From assembly GCA_039822165.1 (NCBI GenBank), contig JBCBMS010000017.1:1-59712 (forward strand): a stretch of DNA of 59,712 nucleotides. Direction: 5' to 3'. Shown here piece by piece: positions 3,891 to 49,836 of the stretch; the stretch's first letter is position 1, and each line of letters starts with the position of its first letter. The stretch comes from Chloroflexota bacterium (GTDB lineage: Bacteria; Chloroflexota; Anaerolineae; Aggregatilineales; Phototrophicaceae). A model generated the notes under the pieces. That model ran no database searches and was not told where the DNA came from. It saw nothing but the letters and a program-made list of their open reading frames with translations. The position numbers were made by a program, and so were the translations under genes.

Positions 3891-5078
3891 TCACAACTTC
3901 TTAATGTCGTCTTCGATGCGTCCAATCAGGTTACTGCGTAACGGCTCGGTTTCCACACGCTCTGCTGTTCGCATCGCACGATATAACCATGTTGTTGCCG
4001 CATCTTTGTTGTCCTGCTTCAGGTACATGAACCCGGTTGCATGTTCGGCATTGGCGATATTGGCGGTGTCTTTTGCGGTCTGCCAGCGCTCCAGCGCACC
4101 GGCCAGCATAATCTCTGCGCGGCCATACTGCGCCAGGTGCGTGAGCGAAACCCCACGGCAATACATGGCCAGCGCAACGTATGCGCCCATTTTTACGTCT
4201 GCGGCATAGGCAATCACCGTTTCAAAGCTCTCTACCGCTGCTGCATGATTCTTCCTGGCCTGTTGCAAAACTCCCAGTTCATAAAACGCCGTCCAGTAGT
4301 GGTGCTTATCCGGCTGTGTTTTGAAGTGTTCGATAGCATCCATCAGGTAGTGTTCCATCAGCGCGGTTTGCTGTGCGACGCGGGCACACATGGTCATCAG
4401 CATCAGGCAGATGCCCATGTGACGGTGAATGTCGCGGGTTGTCTCGCCGTACTTTGCTATGTCTCGCTGGTAGTAGCTGTGCCAGATGGCGTAGGCCGTC
4501 TGCGCAAACCCTGCTGCCTGCACGCTTTCTTCCTGGCGAATGCGATACTGTGCCGCAGCCTCGTAGACCAGCCCGCGTGTGTACGGGTTGGTAGTACCGG
4601 CGGCAAAATGCAGCATGGCCGCATAGCTGGAGTGGTTGGGGGTGTAGGGTTGCAGGGACGCCGCCCGCACAATGTTGATGTAGGCTTCCACGCGATCATT
4701 GTCATCGGTCGTTCGCTCCAGTGACCGCTCGAACGAGAGTTTTGCAGCGTCGGCACGGTTGCCTGCCATGTCATAGTAACCGATTTCATGACGTACCCGC
4801 CTGATGGATTCCTCGTCGCCGATGTTCAGTAGCAATAGCACCTGCCGATCCAGCAGTTTTTCCCAGCGCTGGCGCTGCGGTGTATACAGAAAGTGGCGGG
4901 CAATCAGGGTCAGTGCAGTGGCAGCCTCGTGGACGAACTGCGGGCGGTTGTGCTCGCTGATAAGCCCGTAGAGATCGTCCGCGTGGTCATCCAACCAGTC
5001 CGGGTCGTGGCTGTTACGCCGGATTTGAGGCAGGAAGCGGGCAAGTTCACTGGTCGGGGTATCACCGGGGTTATGCAT
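3891..5078 (-). CDS. hypothetical helical (TPR-like) protein
   Basis: 395-aa ORF with all-helical repeat-like composition; no recognisable catalytic motif. Confidence 0.55.
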   Translation of the reverse strand: MHNPGDTPTSELARFLPQIRRNSHDPDWLDDHADDLYGLISEHNRPQFVHEAATALTLIARHFLYTPQRQRWEKLLDRQVLLLLNIGDEESIRRVRHEIGYYDMAGNRADAAKLSFERSLERTTDDNDRVEAYINIVRAASLQPYTPNHSSYAAMLHFAAGTTNPYTRGLVYEAAAQYRIRQEESVQAAGFAQTAYAIWHSYYQRDIAKYGETTRDIHRHMGICLMLMTMCARVAQQTALMEHYLMDAIEHFKTQPDKHHYWTAFYELGVLQQARKNHAAAVESFETVIAYAADVKMGAYVALAMYCRGVSLTHLAQYGRAEIMLAGALERWQTAKDTANIANAEHATGFMYLKQDNKDAATTWLYRAMRTAERVETEPLRSNLIGRIEDDIKKL

Positions 5079-5220
5079 GGTTCAACCTGGCTTATAACGG
5101 GCAATGAGGTTGTCATACATCCTAACACAAAATCCACTGGCGCTTTATTGAGGGTCAGTGGACATATCATAAATAATGACAGTATTACAAATTAATATGT
5201 TTCACAGCAGGTTGGTATGT

Positions 5221-5247
5221 GGCGGGAGCGTGGGGCAGGCTCCCGCC
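5221..5247 (-). terminator. GC-rich hairpin 13 nt downstream of stop of the sugar dehydrogenase gene (no U-tract)
   Basis: GGCGGGAGC-gtggggcag-GCTCCCGCC perfect 9-bp stem. Confidence 0.4.
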
Positions 5248-5259
5248 GGGGATGTGGGG

Positions 5260-6447
5260 TTATTCTACAGGAGCGAAACGCAGCACCTGTGCCGGGATGC
5301 GACTGGTGCCGTAATGTACCAGATACAGTTCGCCGCTTTCATCCTCACCGAATGAACTGATGGTGTAGTCTGTATCGAGCAGGAGATTGGACTGCCATGC
5401 GCCGTTGGCGTCACGGTAGGTTGCCCAGATCTGGCCGGAGCAGTAGTCACCGTAGATGTAGGCTCCCTGCAATGTGGGGATGGCTTCGCCACGGTACACG
5501 TAGCCGCCGGTGACCGAGCAGTTGCCGTTGATGTGCTGGTATTCGGCAATCGGGGCGGTCAGGTCATCCGGAATAGCCGCGCCAGAGAATGGATTGTTAC
5601 CCTCAAGGATGTTCCAGCCGTAGTTCTGCCCACCCACGCCGGCTGGCTGGAAGTTGACCTCTTCCCAGCGGTTCTGGCCCACATCGCCCAGGTACATATC
5701 GCCGGTTTCGCGGTCAAAGCTGAAGCGCCACACATTGCGCAGGCCATAGGCCCACACTTCATCGGCGGCGAAGTCATTGCCGACGAAGGGATTGCTCTCC
5801 GGGATGGCGTAGGGCAGGCCACCGTTCACGTTGATGCGCAGGATGGTGCCGAGGAGTGTATCCGGCTGCTGGCCACTGTTCAGCGGGTCACCGGCGCTGC
5901 CGCCATCGCCTACGCTGATGTACAGGAAGCCCTCCGGGCCGAATTCAATGTGCCCGCCGTTGTGGTTGGCGTAGGGCTGTGCCGTACGGAAGATGATGTC
6001 TGCGCTGTTCGGGTTGGCGACGTTCGGGTCATCTTCTGAGACGGTGAACCGGGCCACAATCGTGTCGTTGCTGCTCAGTTCTGTGTAGTTGATGAAAAAG
6101 ACACCGTTATCGGCATAGTCCGGGTGAAACGCGAGGCCAAGCAGGCCACGTTCGGTGTAGCCGTTGCCGAGTGCATCCGTAGAAATCAACCCCGAAGCGT
6201 CAAGAAACGGTGTCGTCAGGACGCTACCGTCCTCAATCACGTGGATGATGCCGTTCTGTTGAACCATGAACATGCGGTCGGTGCCGTCCCCGGCATGTGT
6301 GACGTACAGGGCGCGGTTAAAGCCGTCTACCACAGGTTGCAGGGTGAATTGGGTCGCGTCGGGTGTGGTGGTGGTCTGTGCAGTGGAGATGGCGGCGATG
6401 GAAAGTAACAGTAAAACGATGAGCATGTAACGTGCAGTGTTGCGCAT
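5260..6447 (-). CDS. secreted PQQ-dependent sugar dehydrogenase (glucose/sorbosone dehydrogenase beta-propeller family)
   Basis: 395 aa; signal peptide; GLLGLAFHPDY, HNGG, YISVGDGG motifs typical of soluble aldose/sorbosone dehydrogenases. Confidence 0.75.
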   Translation of the reverse strand: MRNTARYMLIVLLLLSIAAISTAQTTTTPDATQFTLQPVVDGFNRALYVTHAGDGTDRMFMVQQNGIIHVIEDGSVLTTPFLDASGLISTDALGNGYTERGLLGLAFHPDYADNGVFFINYTELSSNDTIVARFTVSEDDPNVANPNSADIIFRTAQPYANHNGGHIEFGPEGFLYISVGDGGSAGDPLNSGQQPDTLLGTILRINVNGGLPYAIPESNPFVGNDFAADEVWAYGLRNVWRFSFDRETGDMYLGDVGQNRWEEVNFQPAGVGGQNYGWNILEGNNPFSGAAIPDDLTAPIAEYQHINGNCSVTGGYVYRGEAIPTLQGAYIYGDYCSGQIWATYRDANGAWQSNLLLDTDYTISSFGEDESGELYLVHYGTSRIPAQVLRFAPVE

Positions 6448-8388: not shown

Positions 8389-8422
8389 GTAGGGGCTTAA
8401 TTCATTAAGCCCCTACTTTTAT
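8389..8422 (+). terminator. Rho-independent terminator formed by a 28-nt GTAGGGGC...GCCCCTAC palindrome followed by TTTT
   Basis: gtaggggcttaat-tc-attaagcccctac + ttttat; member of the dispersed palindrome family. Confidence 0.7.
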
Positions 8423-14041: not shown

Positions 14042-14066
14042 GTAGGGGCGAGGCCATGCCTCGCCC
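14042..14066. repeat. REP-like palindrome (degenerate copy) after permease gene
   Basis: gtaggggcgaggc-cat-gcctcgccc. Confidence 0.5.
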
Positions 14067-16059: not shown

Positions 16060-16087
16060 GTAGGGGCATGGCATGCCATGCCCCTAC
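16060..16087. repeat. REP-like perfect 28-nt palindrome GTAGGGGCATGGCATGCCATGCCCCTAC
   Basis: Perfect self-complementarity; 25 nt after stop of binding-protein gene. Confidence 0.7.
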
Positions 16088-22991: not shown

Positions 22992-23027
22992 CACTGCAAC
23001 GGCGGGTTGTAACGTGGGTAGGGGCGT

Positions 23028-23055
23028 AGCGCGTTGCGCCCCTACGACAAACGGT
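23028..23055. repeat. REP-like 28-nt palindrome GTAGGGGCG...CGCCCCTAC after nuoK
   Basis: gtaggggcgtagcgcgttgcgcccctac. Confidence 0.6.
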
Positions 23056-28737: not shown

Positions 28738-28758
28738 ACGCCAGATTGCCACAAATTG

Positions 28759-28784
28759 CAGGGACGTAGCATGCTTCGTCCCTG
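28759..28784. repeat. REP-like palindrome (variant of the 32850 element) between convergent nuoN and DHFR-family gene; followed by TTTG
   Basis: cagggacgtagcatgcttcgtccctg. Confidence 0.6.
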
Positions 28785-28796
28785 TTTGCGTCTGGC

Positions 28797-31154: not shown

Positions 31155-31913
31155 CTATTCTGCCTGTCGGATCGCAAGCCCCATATCCTGATACAGCCGC
31201 AGCGTCTCATCCGGCACCGACCGATCCACCACCAGCCCGGTGACTGCGTTCAACGGCGCAATCAGGTAGGTGGATGCCGCGCCCAGCTTCTCCCCGGACG
31301 CCATCACATACGTCTCCGCTGCCTGCTGTGACAGGGCCAGCTTGATTTTCGCTTCCTCGTAGTCCCCGGTGGTCAATCCGGCCTCAGCATGAACGCCCGT
31401 CACGCCCATGAAGTACACATCGGCGTAAATCTGCCGGATCGCCTCCAGTGCCGCTGCCCCCACCGATACAATCGAGTGCTTGTACAGCCGCCCACCGATC
31501 AGGATCACGTCTACCGTCGGATGTTCCACCAGTTCCACGGCAATACTCGCGCTGTGCGTGACCACTGTGGCCTGCAAATCGACGGGGAGGTGCCGTGCAG
31601 CCTGCACCGCAGTTGTGCCGCCATCCAGCATCACTACCTGCCCCGGCTGAACCATGCCAGCAACCGCCCGTCCGATAGCGACCTTCTCCTGCGGGAGTAT
31701 CGTCTCGCGCTTTGCAAAGTCTGCGATGGCGGGGGAAGCCGGTAGCGCACCGCCATGCACCCGTTGCAGTAAACCCTCGTCGGCAAGCTCCCGCAAATCC
31801 CGCCGAATGGTATCTTCAGACAGGTCAAGCTCCTCACTGATGGCTTTTGCAATCACGCGCCCATCGCGCTTTAGCCGATCCAGAATAAACTGCCTGCGCT
31901 CATCGGGTAACAT
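31155..31913 (-). CDS. DeoR/GlpR family transcriptional regulator
   Basis: N-terminal DeoR HTH (RRQFILDRLKRDGRVIAKAISEELDLSEDTIRRDLREL), C-terminal sugar-binding domain; start at ATG 31913 with GGAGGA RBS. Confidence 0.85.
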   Translation of the reverse strand: MLPDERRQFILDRLKRDGRVIAKAISEELDLSEDTIRRDLRELADEGLLQRVHGGALPASPAIADFAKRETILPQEKVAIGRAVAGMVQPGQVVMLDGGTTAVQAARHLPVDLQATVVTHSASIAVELVEHPTVDVILIGGRLYKHSIVSVGAAALEAIRQIYADVYFMGVTGVHAEAGLTTGDYEEAKIKLALSQQAAETYVMASGEKLGAASTYLIAPLNAVTGLVVDRSVPDETLRLYQDMGLAIRQAE

Positions 31914-32072
31914 GGTGCGGTCCTCCACCTGTAAAAATCCAGTAAATATGCACGTTAATTCCTGATTTCGCATGTTTTTGCATGGTATGATTGGATTCAA
32001 GAAAATTCAGGCAAAAGTGTGTAGGCTCGTGCAATTGCTTGAGCTATCAAATCCATCATAACAGGAGTTCCC

Positions 32073-32456
32073 ATGAACGACCGTAACAAACCCATGCTGA
32101 TTCTCATCGCCGGCCCCTATCGCAGCGGCACCAACGACGACGAGAGCAAGATGGCCGCCAACCTGCGCCACCTTGAGTCTGTATCCTATTCGATTTTTAA
32201 GAAGGGGCATATTCCCATGATCGGTGAATGGGTCGCATTGCCGGTGTGGCGCACTGCCGGAGGCGGCCAGGTTGGTGATGCACTCTACGATGAGATTTTC
32301 CACCCCACCGCCGGACGCCTCATCCAGCACTGTGACGCGATACTTCGCCTGGAGGGGCAGTCCACCGGCGCAGATAACGACGTCCGCCTCGCTAACGAAC
32401 GCGGCATCCGGGTCTACTACAACATCGAGCAAATTCCGGACTTCACGGCAGAATAG
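32073..32456 (+). CDS. DUF4406 / nucleoside 2-deoxyribosyltransferase-like protein
   Basis: MLILIAGPYRSG...HIPM...CDAILRLEG...ANERGIRVY resembles DUF4406 consensus from memory. Confidence 0.55.
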   Translation: MNDRNKPMLILIAGPYRSGTNDDESKMAANLRHLESVSYSIFKKGHIPMIGEWVALPVWRTAGGGQVGDALYDEIFHPTAGRLIQHCDAILRLEGQSTGADNDVRLANERGIRVYYNIEQIPDFTAE

Positions 32457-32461
32457 CAGAA

Positions 32462-33916
32462 CTACGGGCTGCGGATAATTTCCTCTAGCGTACTGTGCGC
32501 GAACTGCTCCACCACCTCAAACGTCGCGTCATCAAACGCGGGATCGAGTGCAATCAGGTCGTTGAGTAACCGTTCGCGCTCTGCGTCGCTGTGATAGTAA
32601 ATCAACACCTGCGCCCGGTCACTTTCCGGCCTGTTTTCCGTGTCGATCCCATGAAAACCTTCGTAGTAGCGCACAGTATAGTTACTCGGATAGCTGTATG
32701 CCAGCGAATCAGAGCCGGTGATGTTCTCTGCAAAGTAAAACGCGGCTATCTCTGCATCTTCGGCAATACCCGTTTCCGGTGACGTGATAATCACGCCGGT
32801 GCGCACAGTATGCGCCGCCACGCCGATAACAAAAACAATCGCAATACCTGTAGGGACGTAGCATGCTACGTCCCTACCCTGACGACTGCAAAAACGCTCC
32901 GTCAAAAACACAATCCCCGCGCCCACCGTCATGAAGTAAATCGGCATCAACGACGACACAATGCGCGGGTATGGGAACACCCGCTGCACCAGCAGTGCCA
33001 GCGTCACCCACACCAGCGCCGTCACCAGCGGAGCCACACTGTACGGCGACCGCGACCGGTGGGTGACCAGTCCAGCGACGGCTGCAAACCCCATCACCGC
33101 CGCCGTGACTGTCGTAAACGGTAGCCACTGATGCGCCCATGCGAAAAAGCCAGCATAGTTCTCGTAGAAGCGCGGGTAATACTCACCGGGTGGAACCGGC
33201 TGCACAAACGGGTTGTTTATCAGCCGATCCAGTCCACTGAACATCATCACCGGCACGTAGAGAATCAGCGTCAGCACGGCGCCCAATCCGATGCCTACGA
33301 CATAGTTCTTTAGCAGCACGCGCCGCCGATACCCCGCGTTATCGAACCAGATGGACAGCAGCAACCACAGTGCCACCGCGCCCATCGGATACAGCATCGT
33401 CGGTATCGTGAGGAAGCCAAGCGCAGACAACAGCGCAAACCACAGCCACTCATTGTTGCGGTTCTTTTCCAGCAAGCGCTGGCCCAGCCAGAACAGCATC
33501 AGCGTAATGAGTACCTGCAAACTGTAGCCCCGTGCATTCACGCTCATATCCAGCAGTGACGGTGACACCGCTACTATCGCCGCCGCCAGCAAGCCTGCCC
33601 CGCGCCCGTAGAATTTTCGTCCCACCTCATACGCGAACGGGATCATCACCACACCGGGAATCCACGCGGCCATGCGCAGGATCACCGGGTGGTTGCCGAA
33701 CACCAGCCACGCCACATGCGCCAGCAAGGAGTGAAAGATGTGGTTGTTTGGCTCAGAGTAGTTGGCCATGATAGACGGCATATTGGTGGAGACGTACTCT
33801 ATGAAGCTCAACGCCTCGTCAAAGCGCATGCTGCGGTCAAAGTAACGGACGCGCAGCCAGTACCCCACCAGCATCATCGCCAGCAGCACCCCATTGTGTA
33901 ACCATCGTCCGCGCAT
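32462..33916 (-). CDS. ArnT/PMT-like (GT39/GT83-type) membrane glycosyltransferase; contains an in-frame palindromic element
   Basis: 484 aa polytopic; N-terminal RMAAWIPGVV..AAIVAVSPSLLDMSVNARGYS pattern of dolichyl/undecaprenyl-phosphate sugar transferases. Confidence 0.7.
   Translation of the reverse strand: MRGRWLHNGVLLAMMLVGYWLRVRYFDRSMRFDEALSFIEYVSTNMPSIMANYSEPNNHIFHSLLAHVAWLVFGNHPVILRMAAWIPGVVMIPFAYEVGRKFYGRGAGLLAAAIVAVSPSLLDMSVNARGYSLQVLITLMLFWLGQRLLEKNRNNEWLWFALLSALGFLTIPTMLYPMGAVALWLLLSIWFDNAGYRRRVLLKNYVVGIGLGAVLTLILYVPVMMFSGLDRLINNPFVQPVPPGEYYPRFYENYAGFFAWAHQWLPFTTVTAAVMGFAAVAGLVTHRSRSPYSVAPLVTALVWVTLALLVQRVFPYPRIVSSLMPIYFMTVGAGIVFLTERFCSRQGRDVACYVPTGIAIVFVIGVAAHTVRTGVIITSPETGIAEDAEIAAFYFAENITGSDSLAYSYPSNYTVRYYEGFHGIDTENRPESDRAQVLIYYHSDAERERLLNDLIALDPAFDDATFEVVEQFAHSTLEEIIRSP
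32850..32877. repeat. perfect 28-nt REP-like palindrome GTAGGGACGTAGCATGCTACGTCCCTAC located in-frame inside the glycosyltransferase CDS (encodes GRDVACYVPT)
   Basis: Perfect self-complementarity; near-identical copy in intergenic position at 28759. Confidence 0.75.
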
Positions 33917-34075
33917 CGCACATCCTCAATTGCATTCTCTTTGCGGGGCGCTGTCCCACACCCCGTCACTTTTTCCAGAAAAAGTGAACAAAGAGCGTCC
34001 CTTCTACTTCTCAAAAGGCGCTTTCTTTGCTCCCTTCTTTATGGAAAGAAAGGAGAGAAAAATAGATATTGAGTC

Positions 34076-35284
34076 TTATTTTAACGCAGACCACACAGTG
34101 GGCACATGGCCCCACACAATGTCATCCGCACCGAGAAACTGTGCCAGATCTTCCACGCTGCGTTGAATCTGGCGTACCAGCCGCTTATGCTTCGGCGCAC
34201 CCGGCTCCGCATACACATTCTGAACATGCAGCGCCCTCGTCTTGCGATCCATCCGCGGATCAATCCGCCCGATCAGTTTATCGCCATACAGAATCGGCAG
34301 CACATAGTAACCATACTGGCGTTTCGCCTTCGGCACATAAATTTCTATCCGGTAGAAGAAGTCAAACAGCAGTTCGGTGCGATCCCGATCACAGATCAGG
34401 TTATCAAACGGAGAGAGCAGCGTGGTACGCGGCGCAAACTCCCCGTCCTGTATCTGTTCCAGCAGCGGCACCTCGTCGGTATGGATGTACCAGTCGCCCT
34501 TCAGCACTTCGCCGTTCTCCACGACCTCGACGCGCTCCAGCAGATGCTCATTCACCAGTGTATCCAGTGTCTCCGTCAGCGTGGTGTAGCGGCCCCGCGT
34601 GTAGTGATATTTGATGTGTGCCGGAGTCCCTGCGCCAAGTGCTTTGATAGCTTTTTGCGCGGCATAGTGTGTGATCTGCCCATCGTTCCAATGTTCTCGC
34701 GGCGTCCACTCCGGCAGATGCCGCTCCGTTAAATCCCAGATGCGCTGCTTGCCCTGTCGCCCCACCACCATAATCTCCCCGCGCGTCCACAGATATTGCA
34801 GAACGCGCGGCACATATCGTGAACTGTACCAGGCGTGGTTGTCGCGGCGTGGATCAACCTCATCAGCCTCAATATCCCGTGAAAGATTGGCACCATGCTC
34901 TCGTAAGTAATCCCGCACGTGGTCGATGAGTTCGGCTGCACCCTGCTCTGCCAGCCACTCGCCATGCTTCGGGTTGGCCGCCTCCTGCCGCATATGCCAC
35001 GCATGCACCGGGTAATCCTCCGTCAGCACGATAGATGCCGCGTGTGCCCAGTACTCGAACAGGTCTTTGCTTTCCCACAACAGCGCGTCAACGTCTGCTT
35101 CTTTGAACCGTCCCAACCGGCTCCACAGCACCAGCAGATGGCTGCGTTCCACTGTACTGATCGGGTCAAGCTGCACACAGCCCATATCGCGGATCACATC
35201 CAGCATAGAAGCCGGTTTGTGTTTGTGTAGATGTTGTTTTGTGATCGCCAGTCGTCGTACATCTTGCCGGGTAAGCTGCCGCAT
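34076..35284 (-). CDS. YcaQ/AlkZ family winged-helix DNA glycosylase (interstrand crosslink repair)
   Basis: 402 aa; N-terminal LAITKQHL...DMGCVQLDP (Q-x-D motif as in YcaQ-type enzymes), HTH_42-like. Confidence 0.65.
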   Translation of the reverse strand: MRQLTRQDVRRLAITKQHLHKHKPASMLDVIRDMGCVQLDPISTVERSHLLVLWSRLGRFKEADVDALLWESKDLFEYWAHAASIVLTEDYPVHAWHMRQEAANPKHGEWLAEQGAAELIDHVRDYLREHGANLSRDIEADEVDPRRDNHAWYSSRYVPRVLQYLWTRGEIMVVGRQGKQRIWDLTERHLPEWTPREHWNDGQITHYAAQKAIKALGAGTPAHIKYHYTRGRYTTLTETLDTLVNEHLLERVEVVENGEVLKGDWYIHTDEVPLLEQIQDGEFAPRTTLLSPFDNLICDRDRTELLFDFFYRIEIYVPKAKRQYGYYVLPILYGDKLIGRIDPRMDRKTRALHVQNVYAEPGAPKHKRLVRQIQRSVEDLAQFLGADDIVWGHVPTVWSALK

Positions 35285-42169: not shown

Positions 42170-42196
42170 GGCGGACATGCAGAAGCATGTCCCTAC
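42170..42196. repeat. REP unit (GGCGGAC arm ... GTCCCTAC), minus orientation, part of an inverted REP doublet
   Basis: ggcggacatgc-agaa-gcatgtccctac. Confidence 0.6.
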
Positions 42197-42222
42197 AGGT
42201 GTATGGGGTTCACAACAAATGT

Positions 42223-42248
42223 GTAGGGACGGCCTTCTGGCCGTCCGC
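42223..42248. repeat. REP unit (GTAGGGAC ... GTCCGC), plus orientation, partner of 42170..42196 (REPIN-like pair between convergent genes)
   Basis: gtagggacggcc-ttct-ggccgtccgc. Confidence 0.6.
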
Positions 42249-48971: not shown

Positions 48972-49757
48972 GTGGATTCTAACACGAAAGCTCAGATGAA
49001 AGAGGCCCGCGACCGGATTCGCGGCGGGCACTACGATGAAGCCCGCGCCATTCTGCTGTACATTCGGCACCCGACTGCCCGTGAGTGGCTGGAAAAGCTG
49101 GAACAACTCGACCCATCCGGCAGCGCAGATTCCCTGGCACAGCGACCGACGAAACGCGACAGCGGCCTCAGCCCGGTGGCGATTGGTGTGCTGGCCGTGG
49201 GCGTGGTCGTGTTCGTCGCGGCTATTGTGCTGATGGTGACGGGAACACTCTCGAATTTGTCCGGGTTTTCATTCAATTCCGAGCCGGCCCCGGCGACTAT
49301 GCTGCGTTTCGATCACCCGCAGGTGGCCTTCAGCTACCCGGACACGTTGCAGTTACAGGACGCTTCGCAGCACCCGGATTGTGACCTGCCGCTGGAGTGC
49401 GCGGCCTGGCTGACGGATAGCCGCCGGGATGCGCATGTGCTGGTGAGTTCAATCACCATTCCGCTCCAGATTATCGACTACAGCAGCGACGAACTGGAGC
49501 GGGCGTTGATGCGCTTTGTGCGTGATGGCGTGGCGGGTGAGGAGTTTATCTCGCGCGGGCTGGTGGATGTGGGTGAGGGCCGCTACGAGGCCATCCGGCG
49601 GGAGATGTACTACCCCACCGGCGGCTATGAAGTCACCTACCTGATTACGTTTGAGGGGCGGGCCTACTTCGTGTGGTACCTCGCCAGCTCTGAGCGCGAT
49701 CTTAACCGCTATATGGCCGACGCCGAGATGGTCGCCAATACGCTGCTCATCAAGTAG
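48972..49757 (+). CDS. hypothetical membrane-anchored protein
   Basis: 261-aa ORF with one central TM segment. Confidence 0.5.
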   Translation: MDSNTKAQMKEARDRIRGGHYDEARAILLYIRHPTAREWLEKLEQLDPSGSADSLAQRPTKRDSGLSPVAIGVLAVGVVVFVAAIVLMVTGTLSNLSGFSFNSEPAPATMLRFDHPQVAFSYPDTLQLQDASQHPDCDLPLECAAWLTDSRRDAHVLVSSITIPLQIIDYSSDELERALMRFVRDGVAGEEFISRGLVDVGEGRYEAIRREMYYPTGGYEVTYLITFEGRAYFVWYLASSERDLNRYMADAEMVANTLLIK

Positions 49758-49789
49758 GGTGGGGCGGACGCCAGAATTGGCGTCCCTAC
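49754..49789. repeat. REP unit (ends ...GTCCCTAC), minus orientation
   Basis: gtagggtggggcggacgcc-agaatt-ggcgtccctac. Confidence 0.6.
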
Positions 49790-49809
49790 GCAAAATACAG
49801 GTTCATGCT

Positions 49810-49836
49810 GTAGGGACATGCTTCTGCATGTCCGCC
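49810..49836. repeat. REP unit (GTAGGGAC...GTCCGCC), plus orientation; with 49754..49789 forms an inverted doublet between convergent genes
   Basis: gtagggacatgc-ttct-gcatgtccgcc. Confidence 0.6.

Follow-up and report, generated by a model that had tools for sequence, protein, structure and literature searches.

Positions 1 to 59,712 of contig JBCBMS010000017.1, from a Chloroflexota metagenome-assembled genome (MAG), form the 59.7-kb stretch analysed here (the window). At 32850-32877 it carries a perfect 28-nt palindrome, GTAGGGACGTAGCATGCTACGTCCCTAC, within a continuous open reading frame (ORF) for a membrane glycosyltransferase. The locus raises the question of how such an element came to lie inside a coding sequence, and what it means for the gene around it. 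An earlier sequence-only reading had described the palindrome as perfect and as resembling the repetitive extragenic palindromes (REPs), and both descriptions hold. In 100 dinucleotide-preserving shuffles of the window, no match to it was found, even with three mismatches allowed. It has the foot and GC-rich stem of a GTAG REP, belongs to a dispersed family that lies mostly 3' of genes, and in other genomes flanks or sits inside genes for REP-associated tyrosine transposases (RAYTs). Judged by its sequence, the element is a double-foot GTAG REP of the type associated with RAYT subclass 2.4. Very probably it was inserted into the glycosyltransferase gene and has been tolerated there in frame.

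The palindrome reads GTAG-GGACGTAGCA followed directly by TGCTACGTCC-CTAC, with a foot at either end and no strand of its own. Folded as RNA, it forms a stem of 10 bp (12 bp with pairing of the feet) closed by a 4-nt loop, with a free energy of -20.3 kcal/mol, and three consecutive G-C pairs lie at the base of the stem (GTAG-GGG...CCC-CTAC). The architecture is also nested: a 12-nt palindrome, GTAG-CATG-CTAC, is central in GTAGGGAC...GTCCCTAC, an arrangement that resembles a mini double-foot unit within a larger one. An intrinsic terminator inside the gene can be rejected, since no terminator-like site was found within 32300-34100. The sequence-only reading had also pointed to an antisense ORF at 32810..33124 (104 aa, Arg/His-rich) that includes CRDVACYVPT. 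It does, as a trivial consequence of the REP being palindromic, and this ORF is probably not a gene.

The host gene occupies 32462..33916 on the minus strand and encodes a protein of 484 aa, with the frame intact across the insert. The coding unit is best taken as the 30 nt at 32849..32878 on the same strand (GGT AGG GAC GTA GCA TGC TAC GTC CCT ACA), which encodes GRDVACYVPT, residues 347-356, as had been read from the sequence. The assignment to a membrane glycosyltransferase is likewise borne out: the protein scores 45.8 bits against Pfam PMT_2 (cut-off 26.1) and is identical to an NCBI entry from a Chloroflexota MAG named 'glycosyltransferase family 39'. Thirteen homologues (30-57% identity) align end to end over the insert site as single proteins. 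Invariant columns in this alignment lie on both sides of the insert, namely D33/E34 (the DE motif), R129-Y131, P410 and Y417/Y418. D33 and E34 provide the acidic motif of a GT-C glycosyltransferase in the first extracytoplasmic loop. An AlphaFold2 model built from the homologue alignment has a mean predicted local distance difference test score (pLDDT) of 89.8 and a predicted template modelling score (pTM) of 0.88, and its best structural matches in Foldseek are the GT-C enzymes STT3, ArnT and PglB, with E values down to 4e-8. By sequence and model, the ORF is one gene for a GT-C (PMT_2/GT39-like) glycosyltransferase.

Within this protein, the ten residues stand out as an addition. The sequence-only reading had proposed that orthologues be aligned to see whether the segment is lineage-specific, and among 47 glycosyltransferase homologues none carries the peptide. 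In P0002, the closest homologue at 56% identity, 10 residues are missing from the site by the multiple alignment and 9 by the pairwise one. On either side of the insert homologues align, at 60% identity upstream and 48% downstream. Measured between the invariant G334 and P410, the segment is 75 aa long in the window protein and 66 in P0002, the homologues having a median of 70 and a range of 66-76; in-silico removal of the ten residues leaves 65. The 10-aa segment is thus lineage-specific as far as these alignments indicate. Its codon usage is the second lowest among the 475 ten-codon windows of the gene, with codons atypical for this genome such as AGG (2.6% of Arg), CCT (5.6% of Pro) and GTA (10.8% of Val).

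In the AlphaFold2 model, the insert falls where helix 317-346 meets helix 348-373; these two are the final membrane helices, and the C-terminal alpha/beta domain follows them. The 'predicted loop' of the sequence-only reading is therefore right in that the site is a turn between two helices, but with part of the insert the model extends the last transmembrane helix at its N-terminal end, and pLDDT dips to 73 over residues 341-350. The C-terminal soluble domain of those GT-C enzymes that have one is extracytoplasmic, so by analogy with the family topology the turn that holds the insert is most likely cytoplasmic, in agreement with its three arginines.

The REP can be read through in only one way. 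Two of its three phases contain TAG (GTA GGG ACG TAG; G TAG), and the sole open phase is AGG GAC GTA GCA TGC TAC GTC CCT. As the REP is palindromic, this holds on both strands. The consensus unit of 30 nt corresponds to 10 codons, and its insertion would therefore preserve the downstream frame. Two further MAG assemblies carry the gene at 99.9% identity or more, with the REP insert included.

The palindrome belongs to a family that is well represented in the window. Palindromes of the form GTAGGG-N(8-30)-CCCTAC occur five times, where 0.01 would be expected, and a census of hairpins adds single-foot units of the form GTAG-GGAC-stem-loop-stem-GTCC-GC, for a total of about 10 related REP units at 8 loci. 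Seven of these loci are intergenic, and most of them lie some 17-85 nt past a stop codon; the sole exception is the copy at 32850. This distribution is the classical REP pattern.

Beyond the window, the exact 24-nt core AGGGACGTAGCATGCTACGTCCCT was sought in species-representative genomes, and 69 copies were found at 67 loci in 23 genomes, with unrelated flanks; the MAG from which the window comes is not among the genomes matched. The hosts are Pleurocapsales, Xenococcaceae, Spirulina and other Cyanobacteria, Melainabacteria, Saprospiraceae and other Bacteroidota, Calditrichia, Cardiobacteriaceae, an Enterobacteriaceae MAG (Gammaproteobacteria) and three Chloroflexota, and Pleurocapsales LEGE 06147 alone accounts for about 25 of the loci. 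In these other genomes, 63 full 28-nt copies are identical to 32850-32877, and the exact sequence is common to at least five phyla. In the symmetrised flanks of the 67 copies, conservation around the core is 96-97% for GT/AC and then 63% for T/A at position -3. Since conservation extends to this position, the repeat unit is better described as 30 nt, TGTAGGG...CCCTACA, which is 32849-32878 in the window, where 29 of 30 positions agree with the cross-genome consensus. The flanks of the 67 copies show no consistent target-site duplication. The 28-mer has no match in viral contigs, and a phage vector for the spread across phyla was rejected on this ground; a literature search for the exact sequence likewise gave no match. 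The sharing of an exact REP between phyla fits the horizontal spread already proposed for subclass 2.4.

Copies within genes are few. Only two of the 69 lie in the middle of an ORF, both of them inside RAYT genes, and a third, disrupted, case is found in a Cyanobacteria MAG (L059, at about 6301), where the REP comes after residue 56 of a DUF5615/PIN_10 ORF and the Pfam match extends no further than profile position 56 of 110. The L059 gene appears to have been disrupted by, or truncated at, the REP. A frame-preserving copy in the middle of a housekeeping-type gene is thus uncommon for this REP subfamily, yet documented as a phenomenon. In a Saprospiraceae MAG (L013, 1-52), the 28-mer occupies the loop of another REP, as GGGGCGC-aact-[28-mer]-a-GCGCCCCTAC. 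It looks as if one REP had been inserted into another; such a nested insertion would directly attest to mobility.

The link to a transposase comes from these other genomes. The 67 loci include four genes for Y1 transposases that have the HuH, WQ and YIxNNP motifs (L066, L009, L040 and L049). In three of them the REP adjoins the RAYT gene: 1780-2367 with a REP at 1697 in L066, 6580-7170 with a REP at 6518 in L009, and 4933-5604 with a REP at 5589 in L040. Such loci have the makeup of a REPtron, a REP flanking a RAYT with NH[IFV]H, WQ and YIxNNP, with the qualification that the L040 motif is NHLH and not NH[IFV]H. Pfam Y1_Tnp scores above its cut-off in L066 and L040, and the RAYT gene of L049 is flanked by other GTAGGGGC REPs. 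The L066 and L009 RAYTs themselves bear the REP in frame just after the HuH motif, where it encodes CRDVACYVPT and CRDVACYVPM, respectively (...NPNHP-CRDVACYVPT-LNVH...), and the L040 RAYT has a diverged internal derivative at the same site. At E <= 1e-10, at least 7874 proteins belong to this RAYT homologue family, and for several of these JGI uses the name 'REP element-mobilizing transposase RayT'; among the best 120, all those with an organism name are cyanobacterial. Many of the homologues examined hold REP-derived peptides at the post-HuH site, such as CRDVACYVST, CRDVPWNVPT and VETLHCNVST. In four RAYTs of the subclass 2.4 type (P0152, P0140, P0153 and P0068), a REP-derived peptide is repeated in tandem at the variable site between HuH and Y, for example PQNVETLR five times or RRDVANY three times, which suggests that the internal REP was partly duplicated more than once.

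These features place the element among known systems. Its foot and GC-rich stem-loop, its dispersed copies with unrelated flanks and its mainly extragenic position near gene 3' ends, between unidirectional or convergent genes, are those of a GTAG REP. Subclass 2.4 REPs (Bertels group 4) have three G-C pairs at the base of the stem and include, alongside canonical REPs, double-foot REPs with 5' GT[AG]G and 3' C[TC]AC; they are spread over Cyanobacteria, Bacteroidetes and scattered phyla, and a patchy distribution and horizontal transfer have already been proposed for them (Quentin, Siguier, Chandler and Fichant 2018, PMC6006769). The window element, with both feet on one hairpin, agrees with them in the feet, in the three base pairs, in its coexistence with single-foot REPs and in taxonomic spread. 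It differs in that its host is a GT-C glycosyltransferase gene in a Chloroflexota MAG and not a transposase gene, and in that the window holds no detected RAYT.

REPs in frame within genes, including RAYT genes themselves, have been described before (PMC3733652, PMC6006769). Di Nocera, De Gregorio and Rocco (2013) reported GTAG REPs that lie wholly inside ORFs of known function and leave the frame intact, a GTAG REP in the Chloroflexi (GTAG-23 of Thermomicrobium roseum), and a preference of such REPs for positions just 3' of genes, along with head-to-head dimers and the use of the TAG of GTAG as a stop codon (PMC3733652). The copy studied here is like their intragenic REPs in lying entirely inside an ORF with the frame unbroken. 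Unlike their set, which is enriched in replication and repair genes and of which over half consists of dimers or grouped repeats that encode 20-30 aa (PMC3733652), it stands alone, as one unit of 10 aa in a membrane glycosyltransferase. The REP doublets forming hairpins (REPINs) of group 2/3 RAYTs in Pseudomonas and Enterobacteria (Bertels and Rainey 2011, PMC3116915) share with the window family the GTAG foot and hairpin, the inverted dimers (42171-42248 and 49754-49835) and a presumed mobilisation by a single-copy HUH-Y1 protein. The intragenic copy, in contrast, is a singleton with two feet on one perfectly symmetric hairpin, belongs with another RAYT subclass, and has a sequence common to several phyla rather than species-specific.

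The sequence-only reading had compared the element with the Rickettsia palindromic elements (RPEs) and had called such insertions rare. The comparison is apt in one respect, that both are palindromic repeats in frame inside genes that are probably still functional. Typical RPEs such as RPE-1, however, are about 100-150 bp long and encode tens of residues, whereas the window element has 28-30 bp, is GTAG-tagged and RAYT-linked, and encodes 10 aa. RPE sequences of Rickettsia conorii end in CGTC, not GTAG, and CGTC REPs have no known dedicated transposase (PMC3733652). An identity as an RPE was accordingly rejected; GTAG REPs are the apt reference, and among these intragenic cases are documented, so that the rarity was overstated. 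A miniature inverted-repeat transposable element, a class of 70-300 bp with terminal inverted repeats derived from insertion sequences and with target-site duplications, was also considered and rejected, the unit being 28-30 bp and all one hairpin.

The course of events may then have been as follows. Most probably, a RAYT (an HUH-tyrosine transposase) acting on single-stranded DNA inserted a copy of the REP into the glycosyltransferase gene, a step suggested by the association of REP and RAYT in other genomes. The mobile unit of 30 nt would add 10 codons and keep the downstream frame. It would have landed in the only one of three phases without a TAG stop, and in a short, length-variable turn between the last two transmembrane helices. 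The outcome would be ten extra residues, GRDVACYVPT, and an mRNA hairpin of about -20 kcal/mol without terminator features. The perfect symmetry of the copy and its identity to the cross-genome consensus suggest that the insertion is recent. The REP is most likely not an adaptation but a passenger that is tolerated, probably of recent arrival and either neutral or slightly deleterious.

Several points weigh against this account. An empty-site allele, in which ...TGCAGTCGTCAG would be joined directly to GGTATTGCGATT... if the 30 nt were absent, was not found: the protein search gave nothing between 56% and 100% identity, and a scan of metagenome contigs turned up no closer relative. The exact boundaries of the insertion consequently cannot be fixed. 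Without the ten residues, the loop would still be 1 aa shorter than that of the nearest homologue. No RAYT was found within the window by a motif regular expression, by tblastn with four RAYTs or by a hidden Markov model from 120 RAYTs; the sole match was the REP-encoded peptide itself. To our knowledge, RAYT-driven insertion of a REP has never been directly shown in vivo. For E. coli TnpA_REP, cleavage and rejoining of single-stranded oligonucleotides at GTAG feet has been shown in vitro. Finally, the enzyme with its insert may or may not be active; the same picture would be expected if the REP had recently entered a gene that is inactivated.

This last point leads to the alternative that the insertion inactivated the enzyme and that the ORF is a young pseudogene which has not yet acquired stops or frameshifts. 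In its favour, the REP has kept its perfect symmetry and the sequence of the consensus, a sign of a recent event, and the L059 copy shows that a REP of this kind can sit in a disrupted gene. Yet the frame is intact, and the turn that holds the insert varies in length and is distant from D33, E34 and the other conserved columns. The model makes room for the insert, its confidence falling only locally, and the allele with the insert is the only one in three assemblies; on balance, inactivation seems unlikely. Still less likely is that the hairpin or the peptide has been co-opted, whether to pause translation ahead of the final transmembrane helix, to offer an RNase or processing site, or to form a functional loop with a cysteine. 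It is true that the hairpin is stable (-20.3 kcal/mol), that the local RNA region folds better than shuffles (z = -4.1) and that the peptide is kept in frame in RAYT genes of distant phyla. A perfect palindrome, however, produces exactly such a z-score, retention in RAYTs is explained by the biology of the element itself and is uninformative on the glycosyltransferase, no glycosyltransferase homologue has anything comparable at the site, and the REP family is otherwise intergenic.

A chance sequence, an assembly artefact or a junction of two genes can be given almost no credence. Palindromes can in principle come from assembly errors, and nothing further speaks for an artefact; against it and against chance stand the shuffles without a match, the 63 full copies in independent assemblies from several phyla and the three assemblies of the gene. 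The sequence-only reading had allowed that the ORF might be two genes split at the palindrome; the homologues that span the site as single proteins, the PMT_2 match and the confident model argue otherwise.

The insertion of a REP that has been tolerated in frame remains the preferred explanation, and it could be taken further. It may be that the double-foot REP of subclass 2.4 has been shaped by selection to live inside coding sequence, that REP and RAYT travel between phyla as a self-contained package, and that insertions in host genes are a regular, underestimated source of variation in loop length. Such a proposal would draw on the 10-codon unit, the one stop-free phase on both strands, the presence in frame in the element's own transposase gene and the identical 28-30-mer in at least five phyla. 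We consider it improbable, to about the same degree as inactivation of the enzyme. If selection did act in this way, host-gene insertions would no longer be rare accidents.

In itself, the case adds an example to the documented phenomenon of intragenic in-frame GTAG REPs, which is less rare than the sequence-only reading had implied; it answers no open question. For annotation, peptides of the (C/G)RDVACYVPT type in MAG proteins flag REP insertions and not conserved motifs, and REPs of this kind also create spurious antisense ORFs. The locus provides a worked example of the constraints on persistence, namely that the unit length is a multiple of three, that just one phase is free of stops and that the turn between the transmembrane helices varies in length. 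With it, the known range of subclass 2.4 REPs takes in an uncultured lineage of the Chloroflexota, and an exact REP common to distant phyla bears on how REP-RAYT systems spread.

The genes that neighbour the glycosyltransferase gene, at 31155-32000, 32073-32456 and 34076-35284, encode a DeoR-family regulator, a 127-aa ORF without a Pfam match and an AlkZ-like DNA glycosylase, respectively, and nothing suggests a functional tie between them and the REP. Among the other REPs of the window, the intergenic copy that the sequence-only reading had placed near 28759 does exist, at 28758..28785, between convergent genes whose stop codons are 21 nt and 12 nt away. It had been called near-identical; in fact it is a decayed copy of the same subfamily that differs at 4 of 28 positions, with both feet mutated (GCAG...CTGT), and for this reason a search allowing three mismatches misses it.

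The remaining loci, at 8389, 14042, 16060, 23018, 42173/42223 and 49766/49810, go beyond those listed in that reading. Three are double-foot variants, GTAGGGGCTTAATTCATTAAGCCCCTAC at 8389..8416 and GTAGGGGCGTAGCGCGTTGCGCCCCTAC at 23018..23045, both intergenic, and GTAGGGGCATGGCATGCCATGCCCCTAC at 16060..16087, a perfect palindrome 25 nt past a stop codon; like the decayed copy and the dimers described below, they are not assigned to a strand. A single-foot REP, GTAG-GGGCGAGGC-c-ATGCCTCGCCC, lies on the plus strand at 14042..14066, 17 nt past a stop codon.

Single-foot units also form two head-to-head dimers, with unit starts at 42173/42223 and 49766/49810. They are arranged as [GC-stem-loop-stem-CTAC], a spacer of 20-26 nt and [GTAG-stem-loop-stem-GC], and are REPIN-like. 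The dimer at 42171..42248, between convergent genes, consists of [GC-GGACATGC-agaa-GCATGTCC-CTAC], a 26-nt spacer and [GTAG-GGACGGCC-ttct-GGCCGTCC-GC]. Near the second, at 49754..49835, ORF 48972..49757 (261 aa, no Pfam match) ends in a TAG stop that falls inside a GTAGGG at 49754, and this GTAGGG adjoins the REP hairpin. A REP foot may have supplied this stop; against this, the GTAG at 49754 was rejected as the foot of the adjoining hairpin, whose own foot is the CTAC at 49786-49789, and a REP origin of the overlap is for that reason not claimed. The right-hand unit of the second dimer is identical to the unit at 42173-42196 in the first: the sequence GTAGGGACATGCTTCTGCATGTCC occurs at 42173-42196 on the minus strand and at 49810-49833 on the plus strand.

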